Origin: a virus
Lineage: Duplodnaviria > Heunggongvirae > Uroviricota > Caudoviricetes
Virus record (IMG/VR): IMGVR_UViG_2693429554_000020
Location: 1 to 35,812 of that record
Reading direction: 5' to 3' (one strand)
DNA length: 35,812 bases
In this document: positions 3,278 to 34,444 of the stretch, piece after piece
Layout: each line of letters begins with the position of its first letter
How positions within the stretch are numbered: the stretch's first letter is position 1
Program-made: the position numbers and the translations under genes
The notes under the pieces: model-generated
What the model was told of the DNA's origin: nothing
Seen by the model: the letters and a program-made list of their open reading frames with translations, nothing else
Database searches by the model: none

Positions 3278-4357
3278 TCAGAACGGGTCCTCCTGTACTC
3301 TGGCTTTTTTCTTTTTCCGCGCGCCGGGATCTTCGGGTTCAGGCAGATAAGCATCAGGCGGGCCGACACGGATTTCCGTCAGGGTTCCGTTCTGGTCCTG
3401 AGTAAACGTGACTTCCGAAACAAGCAGTTCGGTATTGTCGAAACCACAGACCGGATCGAAGACAATCACCCGCTGGTTGGGCTGCCACAGCGTACCGTTA
3501 CCCTGTCGCCAGCCCTGCACCACATAGGTGGTTTCATCCGTCCGCGCCGCCCGTTGTCGGGCTTCAAAGTCAGCACGCGCAATACAGCCTGCCCCCGTGG
3601 CCTGCCCTGTCTGCCTGATATACATCGGACGGTAACGGGCAATAAATGCGTCCTCTGTGCGGGCCCGCAGCGCGGTGGTGGTGGCCTCACCGAAATCATC
3701 GTCGTTTCCGGCACGCTGCCCCGCCACCTGGTAAACAGAAAACCGCTCCCGGATACTCTTCTCCGTATCACAGGAAAGGATGTTTTCCCCAAGTACCAGC
3801 GCGGTATGTGCCCGCGTTGAGCCAATACCGCCAATCACCAGCCTGCCGTGCGGGTCGTCGTAAGCCAGCGCCTGCTGCTGACCGAGTATTTTGTTGATTA
3901 CCTCAATCACCGTTTCACCGTGATCAGGCTGAACATCAGGAATAACACCCGACGGCGCACCGCTGTTCACCACCTCAATGCCAAAAGGCGCAGCAAGCGC
4001 CTGCACAATCTGCACCAGCGAGCGTCCGTTAAACTGTGTCGGTTCGGCTGCACAGTCAATCAGGTCAGCCGTCAGACTACGTCCGGCAATACCGGTGCTG
4101 ACCGAACGGGCATCGTAACGAACGGGAGTCGCCTCCACCCAGCCGGTGATCACCAGCTCATCACCAATCAGCACTTCCACTTTTGAACCGTTTTTAATGC
4201 GCGGCTGAAGCGTGGTGATACCCTCATCTCCCGGCCACTGGCGAGTGATCTCCACACTGAAATCCCGCGCCAGCCGTTCAATACCGGCACCGATGCGCAC
4301 CGATGTCCAGCCATTCCACTCCCGGCCATTTACCCGTAGCGTGACATTGTCGTTCAT
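3278..4357 (-). CDS. Baseplate hub / tail protein (Mu gpP / P2 gpD-like)
   Basis: 359-aa ORF immediately downstream of the N-like gene; size and position fit the late-control-D/hub family. Confidence 0.55.
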   Translation of the reverse strand: MNDNVTLRVNGREWNGWTSVRIGAGIERLARDFSVEITRQWPGDEGITTLQPRIKNGSKVEVLIGDELVITGWVEATPVRYDARSVSTGIAGRSLTADLIDCAAEPTQFNGRSLVQIVQALAAPFGIEVVNSGAPSGVIPDVQPDHGETVIEVINKILGQQQALAYDDPHGRLVIGGIGSTRAHTALVLGENILSCDTEKSIRERFSVYQVAGQRAGNDDDFGEATTTALRARTEDAFIARYRPMYIRQTGQATGAGCIARADFEARQRAARTDETTYVVQGWRQGNGTLWQPNQRVIVFDPVCGFDNTELLVSEVTFTQDQNGTLTEIRVGPPDAYLPEPEDPGARKKKKARVQEDPF

Positions 4358-26366: not shown

Positions 26367-27308
26367 TCACCCCCTGAATCCTGCCGGGATCTGGCTGTAG
26401 TCCACGTTGTCGTAACTGGATTTGAAGTACGGGTCTTCGCGTTTTTCGGTGTACGTGCTGACGGACGGTGATAAGCGCAGGGAAAGCTCATCCCATTTTT
26501 CCCGCAACTTCGACGGGCTGAGCACGTTACGGCACCAGAACGGATCGCGGCTGACGCGGCTGTACATCTCGCAGATTTGTTTGTGAGTACGACCATCCTG
26601 CACACACATCAGGCGAATTTCGTTTGCCCAGGCTGTCCAGTTCGGTTCTTTGGGACGAACCACCTCGCCGTCACATTCAGCGGCTTGCTCGTACAGGGCG
26701 ATGATTTTTTTCCAGAGCCACTGTGCGCAGGTCAAATCATCCTGCGTTCCCCACTGGCGCTTTTTAGGGCTGAATACAACCGCATCAGGATGGCGAGTTA
26801 AAAAATCCTGTTCATCCGTCTGCGCGTCCGGTTGCGAAGCGTCCGGACGAGAAGGTTTTTTATCTGACGGATCATGTTTTGATTTTACTGACGGATCCCC
26901 GCCAGATTCTGACGGGTGAAAACCCGCTTTTTTGCCAGATTTCGACGCATCAAATTTTGACGGGTCAGATTTTGATGCGTCAGATTTTGATGGGTCAGAA
27001 TCTGACAGTTGAGAAAATGCCGCTGCCTGAAGCTTCGCAACGTTAAGCTGATAAACATTCGACGCATTGCGGTTACCCTGGCGACGCGCCTTACGCGTTA
27101 ACCAGCCTTCTGCTTCCAGCCGTGCGATAGCCGTCCTGACGGTACTCATCCCCGCGCCAATCTGACGGGCAATAGTTTCAATTGATGGCCAGCACACACC
27201 TTCGTCATTACTGAAATCAGCCAGGCGGGCCATAATTGCCACGCTGGATAATTTCATGCCTGACGCAGCACAACCATCCCATACATAGCCGGTTAATTTA
27301 GTGCTCAT
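26367..27308 (-). CDS. Replication initiator (lambda O-like, N-terminal HTH) with internal origin iterons
   Basis: 313-aa ORF after the cII-like region; repetitive SDSDPSKSDASKSDPSKFDASK linker encoded by DNA iterons; position equivalent to lambda O. Confidence 0.6.
   Translation of the reverse strand: MSTKLTGYVWDGCAASGMKLSSVAIMARLADFSNDEGVCWPSIETIARQIGAGMSTVRTAIARLEAEGWLTRKARRQGNRNASNVYQLNVAKLQAAAFSQLSDSDPSKSDASKSDPSKFDASKSGKKAGFHPSESGGDPSVKSKHDPSDKKPSRPDASQPDAQTDEQDFLTRHPDAVVFSPKKRQWGTQDDLTCAQWLWKKIIALYEQAAECDGEVVRPKEPNWTAWANEIRLMCVQDGRTHKQICEMYSRVSRDPFWCRNVLSPSKLREKWDELSLRLSPSVSTYTEKREDPYFKSSYDNVDYSQIPAGFRG
26860..27015. repeat. Iteron array (candidate origin of replication inside the initiator gene)
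   Basis: About eight direct repeats of a GATTTTGA(T/C)G(G/C)GTCA-like unit at roughly 15-18 bp spacing. Confidence 0.5.
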
Positions 27309-28486: not shown

Positions 28487-28602
28487 ATCTTTCTCCTCTG
28501 AAATCCAGAGGGGATAATGCTACTTAAAGTAGCGAATTGCAACTACTTAAAATAGAAATGACGAGCGTATGTGATGTGAGTAATCTTCTACCTATGGTAG
28601 AA
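28487..28602. promoter_or_regulatory. OR-like operator/promoter region (three CTAC-N5-GTAG palindromes, candidate pR and pRM)
   Basis: Operators at 28520-28532 (CTACTTAAAGTAG), 28543-28555 (CTACTTAAAATAG) and 28588-28600 (CTACCTATGGTAG, centred on the cI ATG). Candidate pR on minus: TTGCAA-17-CATTAT. Candidate pRM on plus: ATGACG-17-TAATCT, giving a near-leaderless cI mRNA. Confidence 0.5.
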
Positions 28603-29298
28603 GAACAGAAGTATCCAGATTTCGCCAAGAGACTAAACGAGTTAATGACAAACAAGGGAATTTCTGTCACCCAACTCAAAAGTCTTGTTGGCGTTACATA
28701 TGAAATGGCGCGGCGATACACAATCGGCGCAGCGAAGCCTCGTGCCTCTGTCATGAATAAACTTGCGTTGGCTCTGGGGGTATCGGCTTCATATTTAGAA
28801 TATGGTGTTGGCGAGAGAGAAGGATGTAAGGAAATGGCAAGCATCCCCAATCCAACAAAACCCGACGTATACAGGATAGAAGTTTTAGATCTTAGCGTTA
28901 GCGCAGGACCTGGAACCTATATGCTTTCAGACTATGTTGATGTGCTCTACGCCATTGAGTTCACAACAGAACATGCCCGTTCTCTTTTCGGTAACCGTTC
29001 TCAGGATGATATTAAGGTTATGACTGTAAATGGCGATAGTATGTCCCCTACTCTCGTTTCCGGAGATCGACTGTTTGTCGACATTTCTGTTCGTCACTTC
29101 CAGACTGATGGAATTTACTCTTTCGTTTACGGTAAGACTTTTCATGTTAAACGTCTTCAAATGCAAGGTGACAAGCTAGCCGTTCTTTCGGATAACCCTG
29201 CCTATGAGAAATGGTACATCGATGAAAAATCGCAGGATCAGCTTTATGTAATGGGCAAGGCGTTGATTCATGAGTCAATAAAATACAATCGGTTATAG
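28594..29298 (+). CDS. CI-type prophage repressor (HTH plus S24 LexA-like peptidase domain)
   Basis: N-terminal XRE-type HTH and C-terminal GDSMSPT (Ser) with downstream HVKRL (Lys). Start at ATG 28594 since the longer ORF (28537) would cover operator sites. Confidence 0.8.
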   Translation: MVEEQKYPDFAKRLNELMTNKGISVTQLKSLVGVTYEMARRYTIGAAKPRASVMNKLALALGVSASYLEYGVGEREGCKEMASIPNPTKPDVYRIEVLDLSVSAGPGTYMLSDYVDVLYAIEFTTEHARSLFGNRSQDDIKVMTVNGDSMSPTLVSGDRLFVDISVRHFQTDGIYSFVYGKTFHVKRLQMQGDKLAVLSDNPAYEKWYIDEKSQDQLYVMGKALIHESIKYNRL

Positions 29299-29313: not shown

Positions 29314-29661
29314 ATGGCTAGTGAGCAGGGATTCGAAAAGATTAACATGGATATGTTGGTCTCTTATTTCTCAGAAAAGAATATATATCTAAAATGTACA
29401 CTATGTGGACACGACAGATTGACTGTGCCTCAAGTCAGCGCGAATGTGGGCATGCCATGTACTATGAAACTTGGTAGTTATGTGAATGTTTTTACTGAAA
29501 AAAGCATTTATTCTGATACTGCTAACCAGTATTACTTTTCACTAATATGCAACAATTGTGGAAATGAAATTCATATAAATGCGTTTTCAGTTTTGAACTG
29601 GGTAAATGAAAAGTTCCCAGCAAAAACGGAAGATGAAAAAAATGCCGACGCCGCAAAATAA
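29314..29661 (+). CDS. Zinc-ribbon protein co-transcribed with cI (hypothetical)
   Basis: 115-aa ORF 16 bp after the cI stop with AAGGG SD; CxxC pairs (CTLCGH..., CNNCGN); AT-rich. Confidence 0.5.
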   Translation: MASEQGFEKINMDMLVSYFSEKNIYLKCTLCGHDRLTVPQVSANVGMPCTMKLGSYVNVFTEKSIYSDTANQYYFSLICNNCGNEIHINAFSVLNWVNEKFPAKTEDEKNADAAK

Positions 29662-29728
29662 TGTAGTACCATTTAATAGTGAACTTCCCACAATTAGAAG
29701 ACACGGTGGAGATGGCGGAGGTGATGAC

Positions 29729-30013
29729 ATGCTTGAAGCCCGAGTCGCTAAGTTAGAAGCGAATGTTGAGGATATAAAAACAAATCTCGCAGAGATGAGA
29801 GCTGACATTCGTGATTTGCGAAACGCTCTCTCCGACACCCGACGCGATGTCGCTGTTATCCTTCAAAAACAAATAGATATAGATGAAAAGTTGTCAAAAA
29901 AACCTAGCCTAAGTGAAGTCAACAGCGCTATTTCATCAGCCGTAAATAAACAGATCGCATGGACTGTTGCAACAGGCTTGGCGATTTTAGGTCTCGCCAA
30001 ATTTATGTTTTGA
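29729..30013 (+). CDS. Coiled-coil protein with C-terminal transmembrane anchor (hypothetical)
   Basis: Track ORF 29606..30013; start at ATG 29729 preceded by GGAGGTGA SD (7-nt spacing). Heptad-like LEARVAKLEANVEDIKTNLAEM, then IAWTVATGLAILGLAKFMF. Confidence 0.45.
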   Translation: MLEARVAKLEANVEDIKTNLAEMRADIRDLRNALSDTRRDVAVILQKQIDIDEKLSKKPSLSEVNSAISSAVNKQIAWTVATGLAILGLAKFMF

Positions 30014-30319: not shown

Positions 30320-30361
30320 CTACTTTTTGTAGTTGATTTTTGCAACTTTAAGTAGCAATAT
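30320..30361 (+). promoter_or_regulatory. OL-like operators and candidate pL
   Basis: CTACTTTTTGTAG (30320-30332) and CAACTTTAAGTAG (30343-30355), with the same 23-bp centre spacing as the OR pair; TTGATT-17-CAATAT on the plus strand overlaps them. Confidence 0.45.
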
Positions 30362-30633
30362 CATTTTACCGACAACGAACAGGCAGGACGCCCACGAAGT
30401 AGCCGCCTGGGGCATATGAAGTCCAGGATGATTCGTTAGCAACAAAAAAGCGCCCTACCGGACGCTTCGCTCTTTAAAAATCAGTAACCCTCACTTTGGG
30501 CCTGGATCTGGTGGCCTGGGACGAGGTGGAATATGAAAAGGCTCTATTGGTCGACTCATTATCCAATCCTATTATGTCTCATTTCTTCGGTTTCGGTGGT
30601 TTCGGCTTCGGAGGTACATGTCCGTGAACTGGA

Positions 30634-31128
30634 TTATGCTTGTTGGTCATCATTAATATCCGTTAGTTCATTCTCTAGAGGTAGATCTCCCGCACACCAA
30701 GCAATAAATTTTTCTTTGGTTGTTAGATCGTACTTAGTTGGAACACCAGCAAAAATGCAGGCCCGAATGAAAGCCGCTCGTTCAAGTGATTTCCATGGAT
30801 TACTATCGGTATCTTGGATTTTTAAATACCTAGCTTGCAACTGATCTTCAGAAAGAGTATCAGACTCAATCAGCAGTCTTTTGTAATGCCTCGCTTGTTC
30901 TTTAGACATCCCAGCCTCCTGGCCGAACTGATAGACCAACTGAAGAACCGAAAGTACGGCAACAAACAAACCGAAAATAAATAAATTACTGTACGGGGCG
31001 AAAACTGAAAAACCGAGAACGATTAACATCAACGTTATTAATTTATCAATACGAGTTAACAACGTGTAATTCATCTTCTCCAATACATAAGAGTAGTGAA
31101 TATAAAATTTATAATCGTCTCTGGTCAT
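30634..31128 (-). CDS. Hypothetical membrane protein (two N-terminal TM helices), AT-rich
   Basis: 164-aa ORF in AT-rich DNA, antisense to the expected pL transcript; conflicts with plus ORF 30533..30844, which has a strong SD. Confidence 0.4.
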   Translation of the reverse strand: MTRDDYKFYIHYSYVLEKMNYTLLTRIDKLITLMLIVLGFSVFAPYSNLFIFGLFVAVLSVLQLVYQFGQEAGMSKEQARHYKRLLIESDTLSEDQLQARYLKIQDTDSNPWKSLERAAFIRACIFAGVPTKYDLTTKEKFIAWCAGDLPLENELTDINDDQQA

Positions 31129-31511
31129 ATTAGTCTCAGTTTTCCTTGGGTGGTTTTGGAGGAACTGGAGGCTTTTGTCTTAACGGCACATGCCTCTCCT
31201 CATACTTATCTACACATCGTTCCATATAAATCCTTATCGTTGTTGGGGAGGGTTACATAATAACCAAATCCTTGTTGTTGGGGAATAACTAGGTCCACCT
31301 CGCCTGATGTGGCTAAAAGCAGGCACATAACAGCTAAGTATTTTCAACCAGAGAGAATCCTTAGCGTTGTGGTGAATGCGGCTCAGCGCACGCGGGTAAA
31401 GGTTGAGGCTGACAGTCGACCTTCTGTGGATACCCACCCGCCTGGTGTGCAACCTTCGCCAGGCACCGGGAGGCGCCCGGCACCACAACTTTATGCTGTG
31501 TGTAGTCTTGG

Positions 31512-31556
31512 CGGTACCAGCTTGTACCCTTGCTTCCGGCTGGTACCGTCCTTTTT
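31512..31556 (+). terminator. Plus-strand terminator-like hairpin upstream of HD-domain gene
   Basis: CGGTACCAGC (31512-31521) pairs with GCTGGTACCG (31539-31548), 17-nt loop, followed by TCCTTTTT. Confidence 0.4.
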
Positions 31557-31769
31557 ACAAAACAGAGAAGAGCATCACCGGACGACGGGCTCATAACCCA
31601 ATCCATCCGGGCGGCTGCCACCGCAGGTGTTCTTCTCTGTTTTGTGGAGAAACTAACCGCCCCTACGGGGGCATTTATGGAAATGTAATTGACTCAATAA
31701 TCGCCGGACGGTGAGGGCTTCCTTTTACCAGAATTCAGCGCGGTGCAGCGCATATACGTGGAGAACAAA

Positions 31770-32306
31770 ATGTCATTTATTAAAACTTTTTCCGGGAAGC
31801 ATTTTTATTATGACAGGATAAATAAAGACGACATCGTTATTAACGATATCGCGGTTTCCCTTTCAAATATCTGTCGCTTTGCAGGACATCTTTCACACTT
31901 CTACAGTGTCGCCCAACATGCGGTGCTTTGCAGCCAGCTGGTGCCGCAGGAATTTGCTTTTGAAGCTTTAATGCATGATGCAACAGAAGCATATTGCCAG
32001 GACATCCCCGCACCACTGAAACGACTTCTTCCTGACTATAAACGGATGGAAGAAAAAATAGACGCCGTAATCCGTGAGAAATACGGGTTACCTCCTGTTA
32101 TGAGCACGCCAGTGAAATATGCCGATCTCATTATGCTGGCAACCGAACGCCGCGATCTCGGGCTTGATGATGGCTCTTTCTGGCCTGTACTGGAAGGTAT
32201 CCCGGCAACAGAGATGTTCAAAGTGATTCCACAGGCACCGGGCCATGCCTACGGGATGTTTATGGAACGTTTTAACGAGTTATCGGAGTTACGCAAATGC
32301 GCATGA
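31770..32306 (+). CDS. HD-domain phosphohydrolase (YfdR-like 5'-deoxynucleotidase family)
   Basis: H..H...HD motif (FAGHLSHF...AQHAV...LMHDATEAY); start at ATG 31770 with GGAG SD (track ORF begins at 31743); 178 aa. Confidence 0.65.
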   Translation: MSFIKTFSGKHFYYDRINKDDIVINDIAVSLSNICRFAGHLSHFYSVAQHAVLCSQLVPQEFAFEALMHDATEAYCQDIPAPLKRLLPDYKRMEEKIDAVIREKYGLPPVMSTPVKYADLIMLATERRDLGLDDGSFWPVLEGIPATEMFKVIPQAPGHAYGMFMERFNELSELRKCA

Positions 32307-32964: not shown

Positions 32965-33314
32965 TGGAGCCATACAGCCTCACACTCGATGAGGCCTGTC
33001 ATTTTCTCAAGATATCCAGACCGACTGCCATTAACTGGATACGCACAGGGCGTCTTCAGGCAACACGCAAAGATCCCACTAAGAATAAATCTCCTTACCT
33101 CACAACACGACAAGCCTGCATTGCGGCTCTTCAGTCTCCGCTGCATACTGTCCAGGTGAGCGCGGGTGATGGCATAACAGAGGAAAGAAAATGTCACTCT
33201 TCCGCAGAGGTGAAATATGGTACGCCAGTTTCACATTGCCGAACGGTAAAAGATTTAAACAGTCTCTTGGAACAAAGGACAAAAGGCAGGCGACAGAACT
33301 CCATGACAAGCTAA
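32964..33314 (+). CDS. Excisionase-like HTH protein (AlpA/Xis-type)
   Basis: [33 protein letters not shown] motif; GAGGTG SD 5 nt upstream; 3' end overlaps the integrase start by about 124 nt. Confidence 0.5.
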
Positions 33315-34354
33315 AGGCTGAAGCATGGCGGGTCAGCAAACTTGGTGAAATACCTGATATAACGTTCGAGGAAGCGTGTGTCAGGTGGCTTGAAGAGAAA
33401 GCACATAAAAAATCACTGGACGATGACAAAAGCCGGATCGGATTCTGGCTTCAACATTTCGCAGGAATGCAACTAAGAGACATTACTGAATCAAAAATTT
33501 ATTCAGCAATGCAGAAAATGACGAACCGGCGTCATGAGGAAAACTGGAAACTCAGGGCAGAAGCATGCAGAAAAAAAGGGAAACCTGTTCCAGAATACAC
33601 GCCAAAACCAGCGTCCGTTGCAACGAAGGCTACGCATCTTTCATTTATAAAGGCCCTACTAAGAGCCGCAGAGCGTGAATGGAAAATGCTGGATAAGGCA
33701 CCAATTATTAAAGTGCCTCAACCAAAGAATAAACGGATCCGCTGGCTGGAGCCCCATGAAGCACAAAGGCTGATTGATGAATGTCCGGAGCCATTAAAGT
33801 CTGTTGTTGAATTTGCACTGGCAACAGGCTTAAGACGCTCGAACATCATCAACCTTGAATGGCAACAAATAGATATGCAGCGCCGGGTGGCATGGATAAA
33901 CCCGGAAGAGAGTAAATCAAACCGCGCAATTGGCGTTGCGCTGAATGATACTGCATGTCGCGTATTGAAAAAACAAATCGGGAATCATCACCGTTGGGTA
34001 TTTGTGTACAAGGAAAGCTGTACCAAACCAGACGGAACGAAAGCGCCAACAGTAAGGAAGATGCGGTATGACGCAAACACAGCCTGGAAAGCGGCGCTGA
34101 GACGGGCTGGTATTGATGATTTCAGATTTCACGACTTGAGACACACCTGGGCAAGTTGGCTGGTTCAAGCCGGAGTCCCGTTGTCAGTGTTACAGGAAAT
34201 GGGAGGCTGGGAGTCTATCGAAATGGTTCGTCGATATGCTCACCTTGCACCTAATCACCTTACCGAACACGCACGGCAAATAGACTCGATCCTGAACCCA
34301 TCGGTCCCAAATTTGTCCCAGTCAAAAAATAAGGAAGGTACTAATGATGTGTAA
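33191..34354 (+). CDS. int: Tyrosine integrase
   Basis: 387-aa ORF with arm-binding-like N-terminus ([15 protein letters not shown]) and C-terminal [11 protein letters not shown]...VRRYAHL catalytic motif; ends 15 bp from the tRNA 3' end. Confidence 0.85.
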
Positions 34355-34368
34355 CTTATTGATTTAAA

Positions 34369-34444
34369 TGGTGCCGATAATAGGAGTCGAACCTACGACC
34401 TTCGCATTACGAATGCGCTGCTCTACCAACTGAGCTATATCGGC
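34369..34444 (-). tRNA. thrW: tRNA-Thr (anticodon CGU)
   Basis: 76-nt cloverleaf read on the minus strand: GCCGATATAGCTCAGTTGGTAGAGCAGCGCATTCGTAATGCGAAGGTCGTAGGTTCGACTCCTATTATCGGCACCA; anticodon loop TTCGTAA. Confidence 0.9.

Follow-up and report, generated by a model that had tools for sequence, protein, structure and literature searches.

A multi-module non-coding RNA leader at the head of the early-left operon of an SfII/SfV-like prophage

What is the nature of the GC-rich region that precedes the yfdR-like gene of an SfII/SfV-like prophage, where no obvious gene is present? We addressed this question for IMG/VR record IMGVR_UViG_2693429554_000020, the 35,812 nucleotides of which were analysed as a whole (the window); the RNA features described below lie on its plus strand. 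A first inspection of the letters (the original prediction) had pointed to an elevated GC content, which indeed amounts to 0.56-0.58 at 31300-31600 against 0.36-0.45 in the flanks. As explanations a terminator or processing cluster, a cis-acting antitermination RNA and a small RNA (sRNA) gene had been put forward. Each of the features listed in the original prediction was recovered, and they depart from chance expectation. Our results show that the region is a non-coding RNA cluster, located on the plus strand downstream of the promoter pL and heading the early-left operon. It has a composite order (module A, linker, module B, module C, module D) ahead of the first early-left gene, and this order is kept across many Enterobacterales genera. 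The three hairpins noticed originally belong to separate, widely conserved modules, whereas a pseudoknot, a link to DicF and a tRNA-like arm had been overlooked. The stretch 31300-31720 folds as a whole at a z-score of -6.2. Covariation backs module A, its pseudoknot and module C, and base pairing is conserved in homologous prophages, with compensatory changes in modules A and C.

The coding potential of the region is limited to short, mutually overlapping open reading frames (ORFs) on both strands, as had been noted before. They measure 84-103 amino acids, and no Pfam family was found for any of the four overlapping ORFs. In favour of a protein-coding gene one may cite the ORFs of 95-103 amino acids together with existing annotations: in Shigella phage SfII the region is annotated as the protein-coding gene SfII_35, and in E. 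coli UMNK88 it is called a 'frameshifted hypothetical protein' by PGAP. The latter call, however, requires a frameshift. Moreover, no reading frame is consistently open among 195 distinct homologous contexts (the best frame reaches 80 codons in 53-57%), and in the alignments of modules A and C the substitutions track base pairing, not codons. On these grounds we reject the protein-coding explanation, which we consider improbable in the extreme. Parts of the region were detected in 3015 of 5426 complete E. coli genomes; among prophages, those of at least a dozen genera of Enterobacterales carry such parts. In most records the region is unannotated or described as 'hypothetical protein', and a full-text literature search with its conserved sequences returned only a PCR primer.

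On the basis of a Rfam match and covariation, module A (31366-31489) is identified as a divergent copy of the core of the STnc100/PasD prophage sRNA family. The Rfam covariance model of STnc100 (RF02076) matches end to end (model positions 1-206) at 31336-31559 with 42.2 bits, a sub-gathering score with an E-value of 1.2e-7 in a 901-nt search and 5e-6 in the whole window. The proposal of a small RNA gene is hereby supported at the family level. A scan of the whole window by E-value gives one such element and no second copy. The core consists of helix P1 (31366-31374 with 31481-31489), P2 (31378-31393), P5 (31440-31447 with 31457-31464) and P6 (31466-31470 with 31476-31480). It contains the STnc100 core motifs UGGUGAAU, P2 with a UNNGC loop, and CACCGGGAGGCNCCCGGCACCA closing P6 and P1 (31370-31393 and 31464-31485). 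Scanning viral contigs with motif CACCGGGAGGCNCCCGGCACCA yielded 127 elements in 56 sequence clusters, which have both UGGUGAAU and CACCGGGAGGCNCCCGGCACCA in common with the window. Thirty representatives (less than 88% identity) share a single architecture: P1, a junction AAU, P2 with its UNNGC loop, a variable insert, P5, P6, and the 3' strand of P1 abutting P6. Junction and loop nucleotides are near-invariant among them. The consensus fold from RNAalifold contains P1, P2 and P6, and 7 of its 17 pairs show compensatory change; the core motifs and helices covary with 29 representatives.

The loop of P5 is complementary to the stretch directly following P2. In the window this pairing (P3) joins AAGGUUG at 31399-31405 to CAACCUU at 31450-31456, and among the 29 representatives it is kept by at least a dozen different sequence pairs. 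The combination of MAFFT and RNAalifold failed on the variable middle of module A, and the pairing was therefore evaluated with a custom anchor-based permutation test. The pairing of loops with their own partners averages 6.6 bp, compared with 4.5 bp when the partners are swapped, and none of 5000 permutations reaches the observed sum. Together with the complementarity itself, this shows that the core is pseudoknotted. The pseudoknot is not mentioned in a comparative preprint on PasD and STnc100.

The surroundings of the core are informative as well. An intrinsic terminator lies 3' of the core in 95 of 106 unique family contexts, mostly starting 23-36 nt after it (distances are measured from the end of the search motif, 31485 in the window). 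In the window the terminator stem begins at 31510, which is 24 nt past 31485 and 20 nt past the end of P1 (31489). In one subset of the family a strong TTGACx-18-TAAATT promoter ends 9 nt before P1, and the RNA of these members would hence start at the core. Canonical members reside in late regions, with a Q-like gene, a DNA methylase gene or stxB upstream and NanS-p esterase or holin-like genes downstream. For STnc100_4 of strain EDL933 an RNA of approximately 200 nt was seen on a Northern blot (PMC5331693), PasD is an Hfq-dependent sRNA (PMC8550237), and a common ancestor has been proposed for PasD and STnc100 (bioRxiv 10.64898/2026.05.13.724894). A full core of the window type is also found in the ban operon of phage P1 (L005, NC_005856; 1502-1625, corresponding to 70078-70201), 35 nt before tciA and without a terminator. 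Its P1 helix (GUUGCGGUG/CACCGCAAC) is compensatory to that of the window (GUUGUGGUG/CACCACAAC).

Several other arrangements were seen among the relatives. Four contigs (L020, L037, L051 and L072) carry two STnc100-type cores in tandem, exactly 484 bp apart. L035, L090 and related contigs have a strong promoter with the core at +1 directly after a Q-like gene, before tRNA and holin-like genes; in these contigs the late (pR'-type) transcript would begin with the core. A third core variant, with P6 as CCGG-AGAUCAGCA-CCGG, occurs in mEp460 and Stx2a_WGPS2, and is followed by the same B and C modules; mEp460 also has a C4 antisense RNA and isrK near its antirepressor gene. In mEp460 (L130) these observations concern positions 3307-3441 and 775-963. 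The annotation of the ban operon of phage P1 further includes a 'dicF-like region', and three tRNA genes lie in the same operon.

Just 5' of the core, minimum free energy folds contain a leader hairpin, P0 (31333-31365; GCUAAG-UAUUUUC...GAGAAU-CUUAGC), which falls within the STnc100 match starting at 31336. Further upstream the direct repeats of the original prediction are present: GTTGTTGGGGA occurs at 31239-31249 and 31274-31284, each copy inside an AATCCTT(A/G)..GTTGT unit, together forming a strand-neutral feature at 31229-31284. They are part of a longer repeat AATCCTTAnCGTTGT with three copies, at 31229, 31267 and 31356, the third unit (31356-31370) overlapping the 5' edge of module A. 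Possibly the repeats represent a protein-binding site or a recombination scar. The same motif, as paired GTTGT(T/A)GGGGA repeats with a separation of about 35 bp, is retained ahead of the leader in Enterobacter (L239) and Mixta (L247) prophages. Its retention in other genera, including cases in which module A is absent, suggests that it is a binding site and did not arise by chance duplication.

Between core and terminator runs a single-stranded linker, UUUAUGCUGUGUGUAGUCUU (31490-31509), delineated by its conservation and by alignment to the 5' part of DicF. Its motif UUGCUGUGUGUAGUCUU is conserved in diverged relatives. The linker is a candidate RNase E entry site and a candidate seed; this conservation would fit the appearance of a seed region. 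Module B (31510-31556) is a DicF-like intrinsic terminator. The original prediction of a perfect 10-bp hairpin (31512-31521/31539-31548) followed by a T-run proves correct, and the arms can be extended to 12 positions (31510-31521/31539-31550) around a loop at 31522-31538, with T5 at 31552-31556. The stem begins with UUGGCGGUACCAG. The hairpin folds at -23 kcal/mol (z -4.9), and none of 200 shuffles folds as well. DicF and module B align colinearly around UUGGCGGUAyCAG. The position is also that of DicF: within a prophage early-left operon, 3' of a structured element and ending in a terminator, as follows from pL upstream and from the synteny with K-12 and Erwinia.

The Qin prophage of K-12 has the same layout up to this point, consisting of a core-like element, a short linker, the DicF hairpin with its U-run, a second core and dicB. 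The core before dicF (L236, approximately 2755-2870) is degenerate, but can be recognised from an Erwinia tracheiphila prophage, in which this variant occupies the position of module A. The second core follows directly after dicF, 25 nt before the start of dicB. It is well formed (34.4 bits with the STnc100 model) and its P6, CCUGG/CCAGG, contains a compensatory change. The dicF-dicB spacer (L236, NC_000913; 2947-3090, corresponding to 1649446-1649589) hence holds a complete STnc100-type core, closed by a 17-bp helix. DicF itself arises as a 53-nt RNA by termination and RNase E, and as a 72-nt RNA by RNase III acting on read-through RNA (PMC9438474). We computed the 3' end of the 72-nt form to be at L236 position 2954, which is inside the 17-bp helix closing the K-12 core.

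Module C (31557-31645) is a three-way junction, established by folding and alignment. The inverted repeat enclosing a spacer, as seen in the original prediction, is recovered here as 31557-31581/31621-31645, and forms a 20-bp outer helix (31557-31576/31626-31645) closing two inner hairpins. Arm 1 is based on CCGGA/UCCGG (31578-31582/31606-31610) and carries GGG (31587-31589), CUCAUAA and CCC (31597-31599); arm 2 (31611-31614/31621-31624) is short and variable. The module folds at -45.5 kcal/mol (z -7.3). In a 15-sequence alignment (A2) 94% of the cells are paired, against 36-49% in slid controls. Nine pairs are changed on both sides (reached by 1 of 500 shuffles), and 26 cells have both sides changed (0 of 500). 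The outer helix taken separately is 92% paired over the 15 sequences, with five compensatory pairs. In 13 of the 15 sequences a U-G pair is present that would be an A-C mismatch on the opposite strand, which indicates an RNA of the plus strand. RNase III sites need approximately two turns (about 20 bp) of near-uninterrupted helix; the outer helix has this length and, by analogy, is likely such a site. Of the terminator or processing cluster originally proposed, the terminator stands as a canonical one (module B), and processing at the RNase III-type helix is plausible in view of its conservation with compensatory changes and of the analogous K-12 helix, where the reported RNase III end of 72-nt DicF is found.

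The anticodon stem-loop of arm 1 is identical to that of tRNA-Met, and its 16-mer GACGGGCTCATAACCC also occurs inside tRNA-Met(CAT) genes called by ARAGORN in unrelated phages (L207 and L162). Three G-C pairs beside a CAU loop are a hallmark of initiator tRNA. Module C as such is not recognised as a tRNA: ARAGORN calls none at this position and Rfam gives no tRNA match in 31000-31900 up to an E-value of 10. Among approximately 122 elements, retrieved as relatives by their flanks only, arm 1 is identical in 95; variants are CUCAUUA (14) and CUCCUAA (3), and the latter, with CCU in place of CAU, shows that the triplet is not absolutely invariant. The exact 21-mer is found in prophages of Escherichia, Shigella, Citrobacter, Enterobacter, Kosakonia, Mixta, Buttiauxella, Raoultella, Leclercia, Phytobacter, Pseudescherichia, Pseudocitrobacter, Erwinia and Pantoea. 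Module C is located between terminator B and the small GC hairpin of module D, followed by the ribosome-binding site of the first early-left gene, which in relatives is YfdP-like or RdgC-like. A Mixta tenebrionis prophage with the same operators as the window has module C directly after pL, without A or B, and a Klebsiella phage has a module C-like element after Q, tRNA-Asn and tRNA-Arg. No Rfam family matches module C, and apparently it is an undescribed RNA, as it was not found in the literature searched.

Module D (31659-31672) is the third GC hairpin of the original prediction, GCCCC-UACG-GGGGC, ahead of the ribosome-binding region; relatives have equivalent GGCGG..GCCGCC hairpins at this position. 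The window matches the SfV leader at 31295-31670 and the SfV yfdQ-yfdR spacer at 31659-31770. This implies that yfdP and yfdQ were lost from the window and SfII, with the junction at the module D hairpin. As a result, the yfdR-like gene for an HD-domain 5'-deoxynucleotidase (31770-32306, plus strand) is the first gene after the leader, with xis and int next.

How would transcription reach this leader? The window is a lambdoid prophage of a temperate SfII/SfV-like phage (SfII/SfV/ST64B-type), inserted beside the tRNA-Thr(CGT) gene at 34369-34444, which is the only tRNA called by ARAGORN in the window. It has an integrase gene (33191-34354) and, at approximately 28600-29298, a gene for a LexA-like repressor. 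Sequence identity of the region amounts to 99.8% with E. coli UMNK88 and 97% with SfII. An operator search of the window gave 12 matches to the repressor operator CTACTTAAAGTAG where 3.9 are expected. Two of these, at 28520 and 28543 between the repressor gene and a cro-like gene, are the OR operators; two others (30320-30332 and 30343-30355) are the OL operators, with a 23-bp spacing equal to that at OR. Overlapping the latter is a plus-strand pL promoter predicted from the consensus (-35 TTGATT at 30333-30338, -10 CAATAT at 30356-30361, 17-nt spacer). The promoter points toward the leader region, which places the leader on the pL transcript, about 1 kb from its start, in agreement with the original prediction. 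Judged from these sequences, OL/pL (30320-30361) is the likely source of lytic transcription through the leader region.

A 164-amino-acid ORF (30634-31128, minus strand) sits between pL and the leader, convergent with pL, and has a strong terminator of its own at 30447-30468. It has no Pfam family and probably encodes a membrane protein. It resembles a moron inserted between pL and the leader, and pL transcripts would be antisense to it. The stretch of about 65 nt directly downstream of pL (30374-30437, CAGGCAGGACGCCCACGAAGUAGCCGCCUGGGGCAUAUGAAGUCCAGGAUGAUUCGUU) is near-identical in SfV despite the differing operators of the two phages, and has ACGAAC..GGC and CAGGAUGA in common with HK022 putL. 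It could be a nut- or put-like site, though its fold is weak (z -1.1). As a put-like RNA, the pL-proximal leader (30371-30446) was dropped because of this weak fold and its absence in mEp460. Between the repressor gene and OL, two plus-strand ORFs of 115 and 135 amino acids (29314-30013) occupy the place of lambda rexAB; the pair is absent from UMNK88 and SfII. Elsewhere in the window, a strong palindrome within the replication genes (26933-27007) gave spurious microRNA-family matches on both strands and may be a replication origin.

Based on these observations we favour, with moderate confidence, the view that the early-left (pL-side) operon of SfII/SfV/ST64B-type phages is headed by a conserved RNA leader, which is non-coding, consists of several modules and most likely combines an sRNA unit, a terminator barrier and a processing or 5' untranslated region element. 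Its anatomy, strand, covariation, family links and recurrence are observed directly; its operation can be pictured as follows. Transcription would enter from pL upon induction; in the lysogen a weak promoter near 31316-31344 may contribute. Module A would be transcribed first and adopt its compact pseudoknotted STnc100/PasD fold, after which the single-stranded linker and a stop at terminator B would yield an sRNA of approximately 190-220 nt. Cleavage in the AU-rich linker, as by RNase E on K-12 DicF, could free a DicF-like species of about 65 nt. A second role of terminator B would be to bar stray transcription from yfdR-xis-int. Read-through transcripts would reach module C, where the 20-bp helix as a likely RNase III site would separate the leader from the mRNA, and modules C and D would form a structured, regulated 5' untranslated region of the first gene.

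A number of points weigh against this explanation. The STnc100 score of 42.2 bits is below the gathering score of 47. The DicF model (RF00039) gives only 19.4 bits at 31497-31551 (E-value 0.17) at a gathering score of 48, whereas K-12 dicF reaches 76.7 bits with the same model and tool. The duplex energy of module B with the translation start region of ftsZ shows complementarity no better than that of shuffled controls, a comparison of low power in which DicF itself is only marginally better. The best sigma-70 match upstream of the window-type module A amounts to 6 of 12 positions (8 of 12 in SfV-like variants), and such a weak upstream promoter makes independent transcription in the lysogen doubtful. 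Expression of the window variant is something we infer, as are the RNase III and RNase E cleavages, which are put forward by analogy. No N-like ORF was found in the ORF list between pL and yfdR, which leaves the passage of pL transcription past terminator B without an explanation. Finally, the conserved fold of module A and the tRNA-like arm are not obviously needed by an sRNA scaffold, and a further function is probably missing from this description.

Alternatively, module A may be a cis-acting sensor, riboswitch-like or protein-binding, whose folding would determine how well the terminator at a fixed distance downstream works or how the following ORF is translated, with the terminated RNA as a by-product. 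The complex pseudoknotted fold with its near-invariant junction and loop nucleotides is in line with this, as is the regular core-terminator spacing of 23-36 nt. In phage P1 and K-12 Qin the core is located 25-35 nt before the start codons of tciA and dicB without a terminator, and judging by the sequence the Shine-Dalgarno of P1 tciA can pair with a stretch overlapping the 3' strand of the P1 helix. Nonetheless, consistent anti-terminator pairing across the subfamilies is lacking. A riboswitch-style anti-terminator was considered and rejected: the 3' strand of P2 equals that of the terminator in the canonical subfamily only, and this similarity fails in the window type and the other subfamilies. 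Furthermore, a ligand or binding partner is not known for module A, and its relatives are reported as stable Hfq-dependent sRNAs. We regard a sensor as possible though not probable. The same tentative weight is given to a joint proposal in which module C is an undescribed class of phage cis-acting RNA and module A a processing or regulatory 'punctuation' module. Module C, at the 5' end of early-left operons across Enterobacterales, would then work through a factor reading arm 1 as a copy of the initiator-tRNA anticodon stem-loop. Candidate readers would be the 30S P site or IF3, MetRS, and anticodon nucleases, for instance the VapC toxins that cut tRNA-fMet; module C would thereby control the expression of early genes or act as a decoy. 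Module A would be more than a scaffold for an sRNA, namely a general pseudoknotted punctuation element common to STnc100, PasD and the DicF precursor, having a tRNA-like topology in which P1 stacks on P6 in the way that an acceptor stem does on a T arm.

A different origin is suggested by the homology breakpoints at 31231, 31295, 31508 and 31670, which coincide with module edges. Combined with the yfdP/yfdQ deletion ending at module D, the arm 1 16-mer shared with true tRNA-Met genes and the partly duplicated 5' edge of module A, these could mark a recombination scar or mosaic boundary holding a tRNA-Met fragment from an old attachment site, with an incidental structure spread by horizontal transfer. 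Compensatory changes, however, preserve the helices of A and C despite sequence divergence, and the A-B-C-D order and the place before the first early-left gene are kept across many genera, making this scenario improbable. Less probable still is a put-like processive antiterminator RNA that makes RNA polymerase resist terminator B and later ones in place of an N protein, even though no N-like ORF is seen between pL and yfdR, a terminator is always downstream, and in some phages a strong promoter directly behind a Q-like gene has the core at its +1, an arrangement similar to that of putL after pL. A BLAST of the region against the HK022 genome was empty, and a direct comparison with putL (L001 28320-28250) led us to discard homology: no sequence similarity to putL or putR was found. 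The architecture is also different: a put RNA comprises two stems in approximately 70 nt (PMC9378689), while the core extends over 105-140 nt and contains five helices plus a pseudoknot. Module A is about 1 kb from pL. In addition, family members accumulate as terminated RNAs of approximately 200 nt (PMC5331693). The cis-acting antitermination RNA of the original prediction thereby loses its support.

Summarizing, the leader brings divergent forms of known prophage RNA elements (STnc100/PasD and DicF-like) into a novel combination, joined to a three-way junction. One pseudoknotted core ties together the STnc100/PasD sRNAs, the K-12 DicF precursor and a phage early-left leader, which are usually treated apart, and this shared core leads to testable ideas on how prophage sRNAs are made from operon transcripts. 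Because xis and int follow closely on the leader, the control of excision in phages without an obvious N protein is probably affected by its terminator and processing helix. The tRNA-Met anticodon look-alike stays near-unchanged while the surrounding helices covary, which points to a specific binding partner.

A comparison with known systems can be made for each part of the leader. With the HK022 put RNAs it shares being a structured phage RNA in an early operon without a visible N gene and with terminators downstream; module A, however, has no sequence or structural similarity to put, is not promoter-proximal, and its relatives terminate efficiently (PMC9378689). The likeness to STnc100/PasD is much closer: a full-length model match, the core motifs, P1, P2 and P6, a Rho-independent terminator approximately 25-35 nt after the core, and carriage by Enterobacteriaceae prophages. 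Differences concern the sequence of P2 and the middle of the core, the score under the gathering threshold, the lack of a strong promoter of its own, and the location in a pL-side early operon before yfdR instead of a late region after a Q, stx or methylase gene.

The DicF operon (ydfABC-dicF-dicB in Qin) and the window are both early-left operons of lambdoid prophages, with a core-like element, a linker and a UUGGCGGUAyCAG hairpin with U-run. A long helix adjoins each, which in K-12 coincides with the RNase III end (PMC9438474). The loop and the 5' sequence of module B differ from DicF, and where K-12 continues with a second core and dicB after the terminator, the window has module C instead. 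The outer helix of this module resembles the RNase III sites of phage leaders, in that a helix of about 20 bp lies between a regulatory RNA and the first coding sequence. Such sites are known from the lambda N leader, sib and the T7 R sites. In module C, unlike these, the helix closes a three-way junction with conserved inner arms, and cleavage is putative. Whereas ARAGORN and the Rfam tRNA model do not recognise module C as a real tRNA, anticodon-arm mimics in mRNA leaders are known from the E. coli thrS operator, and it is with mimics of this type that arm 1, by its GGG-CUCAUAA-CCC, has a copy of an anticodon arm within a leader in common.

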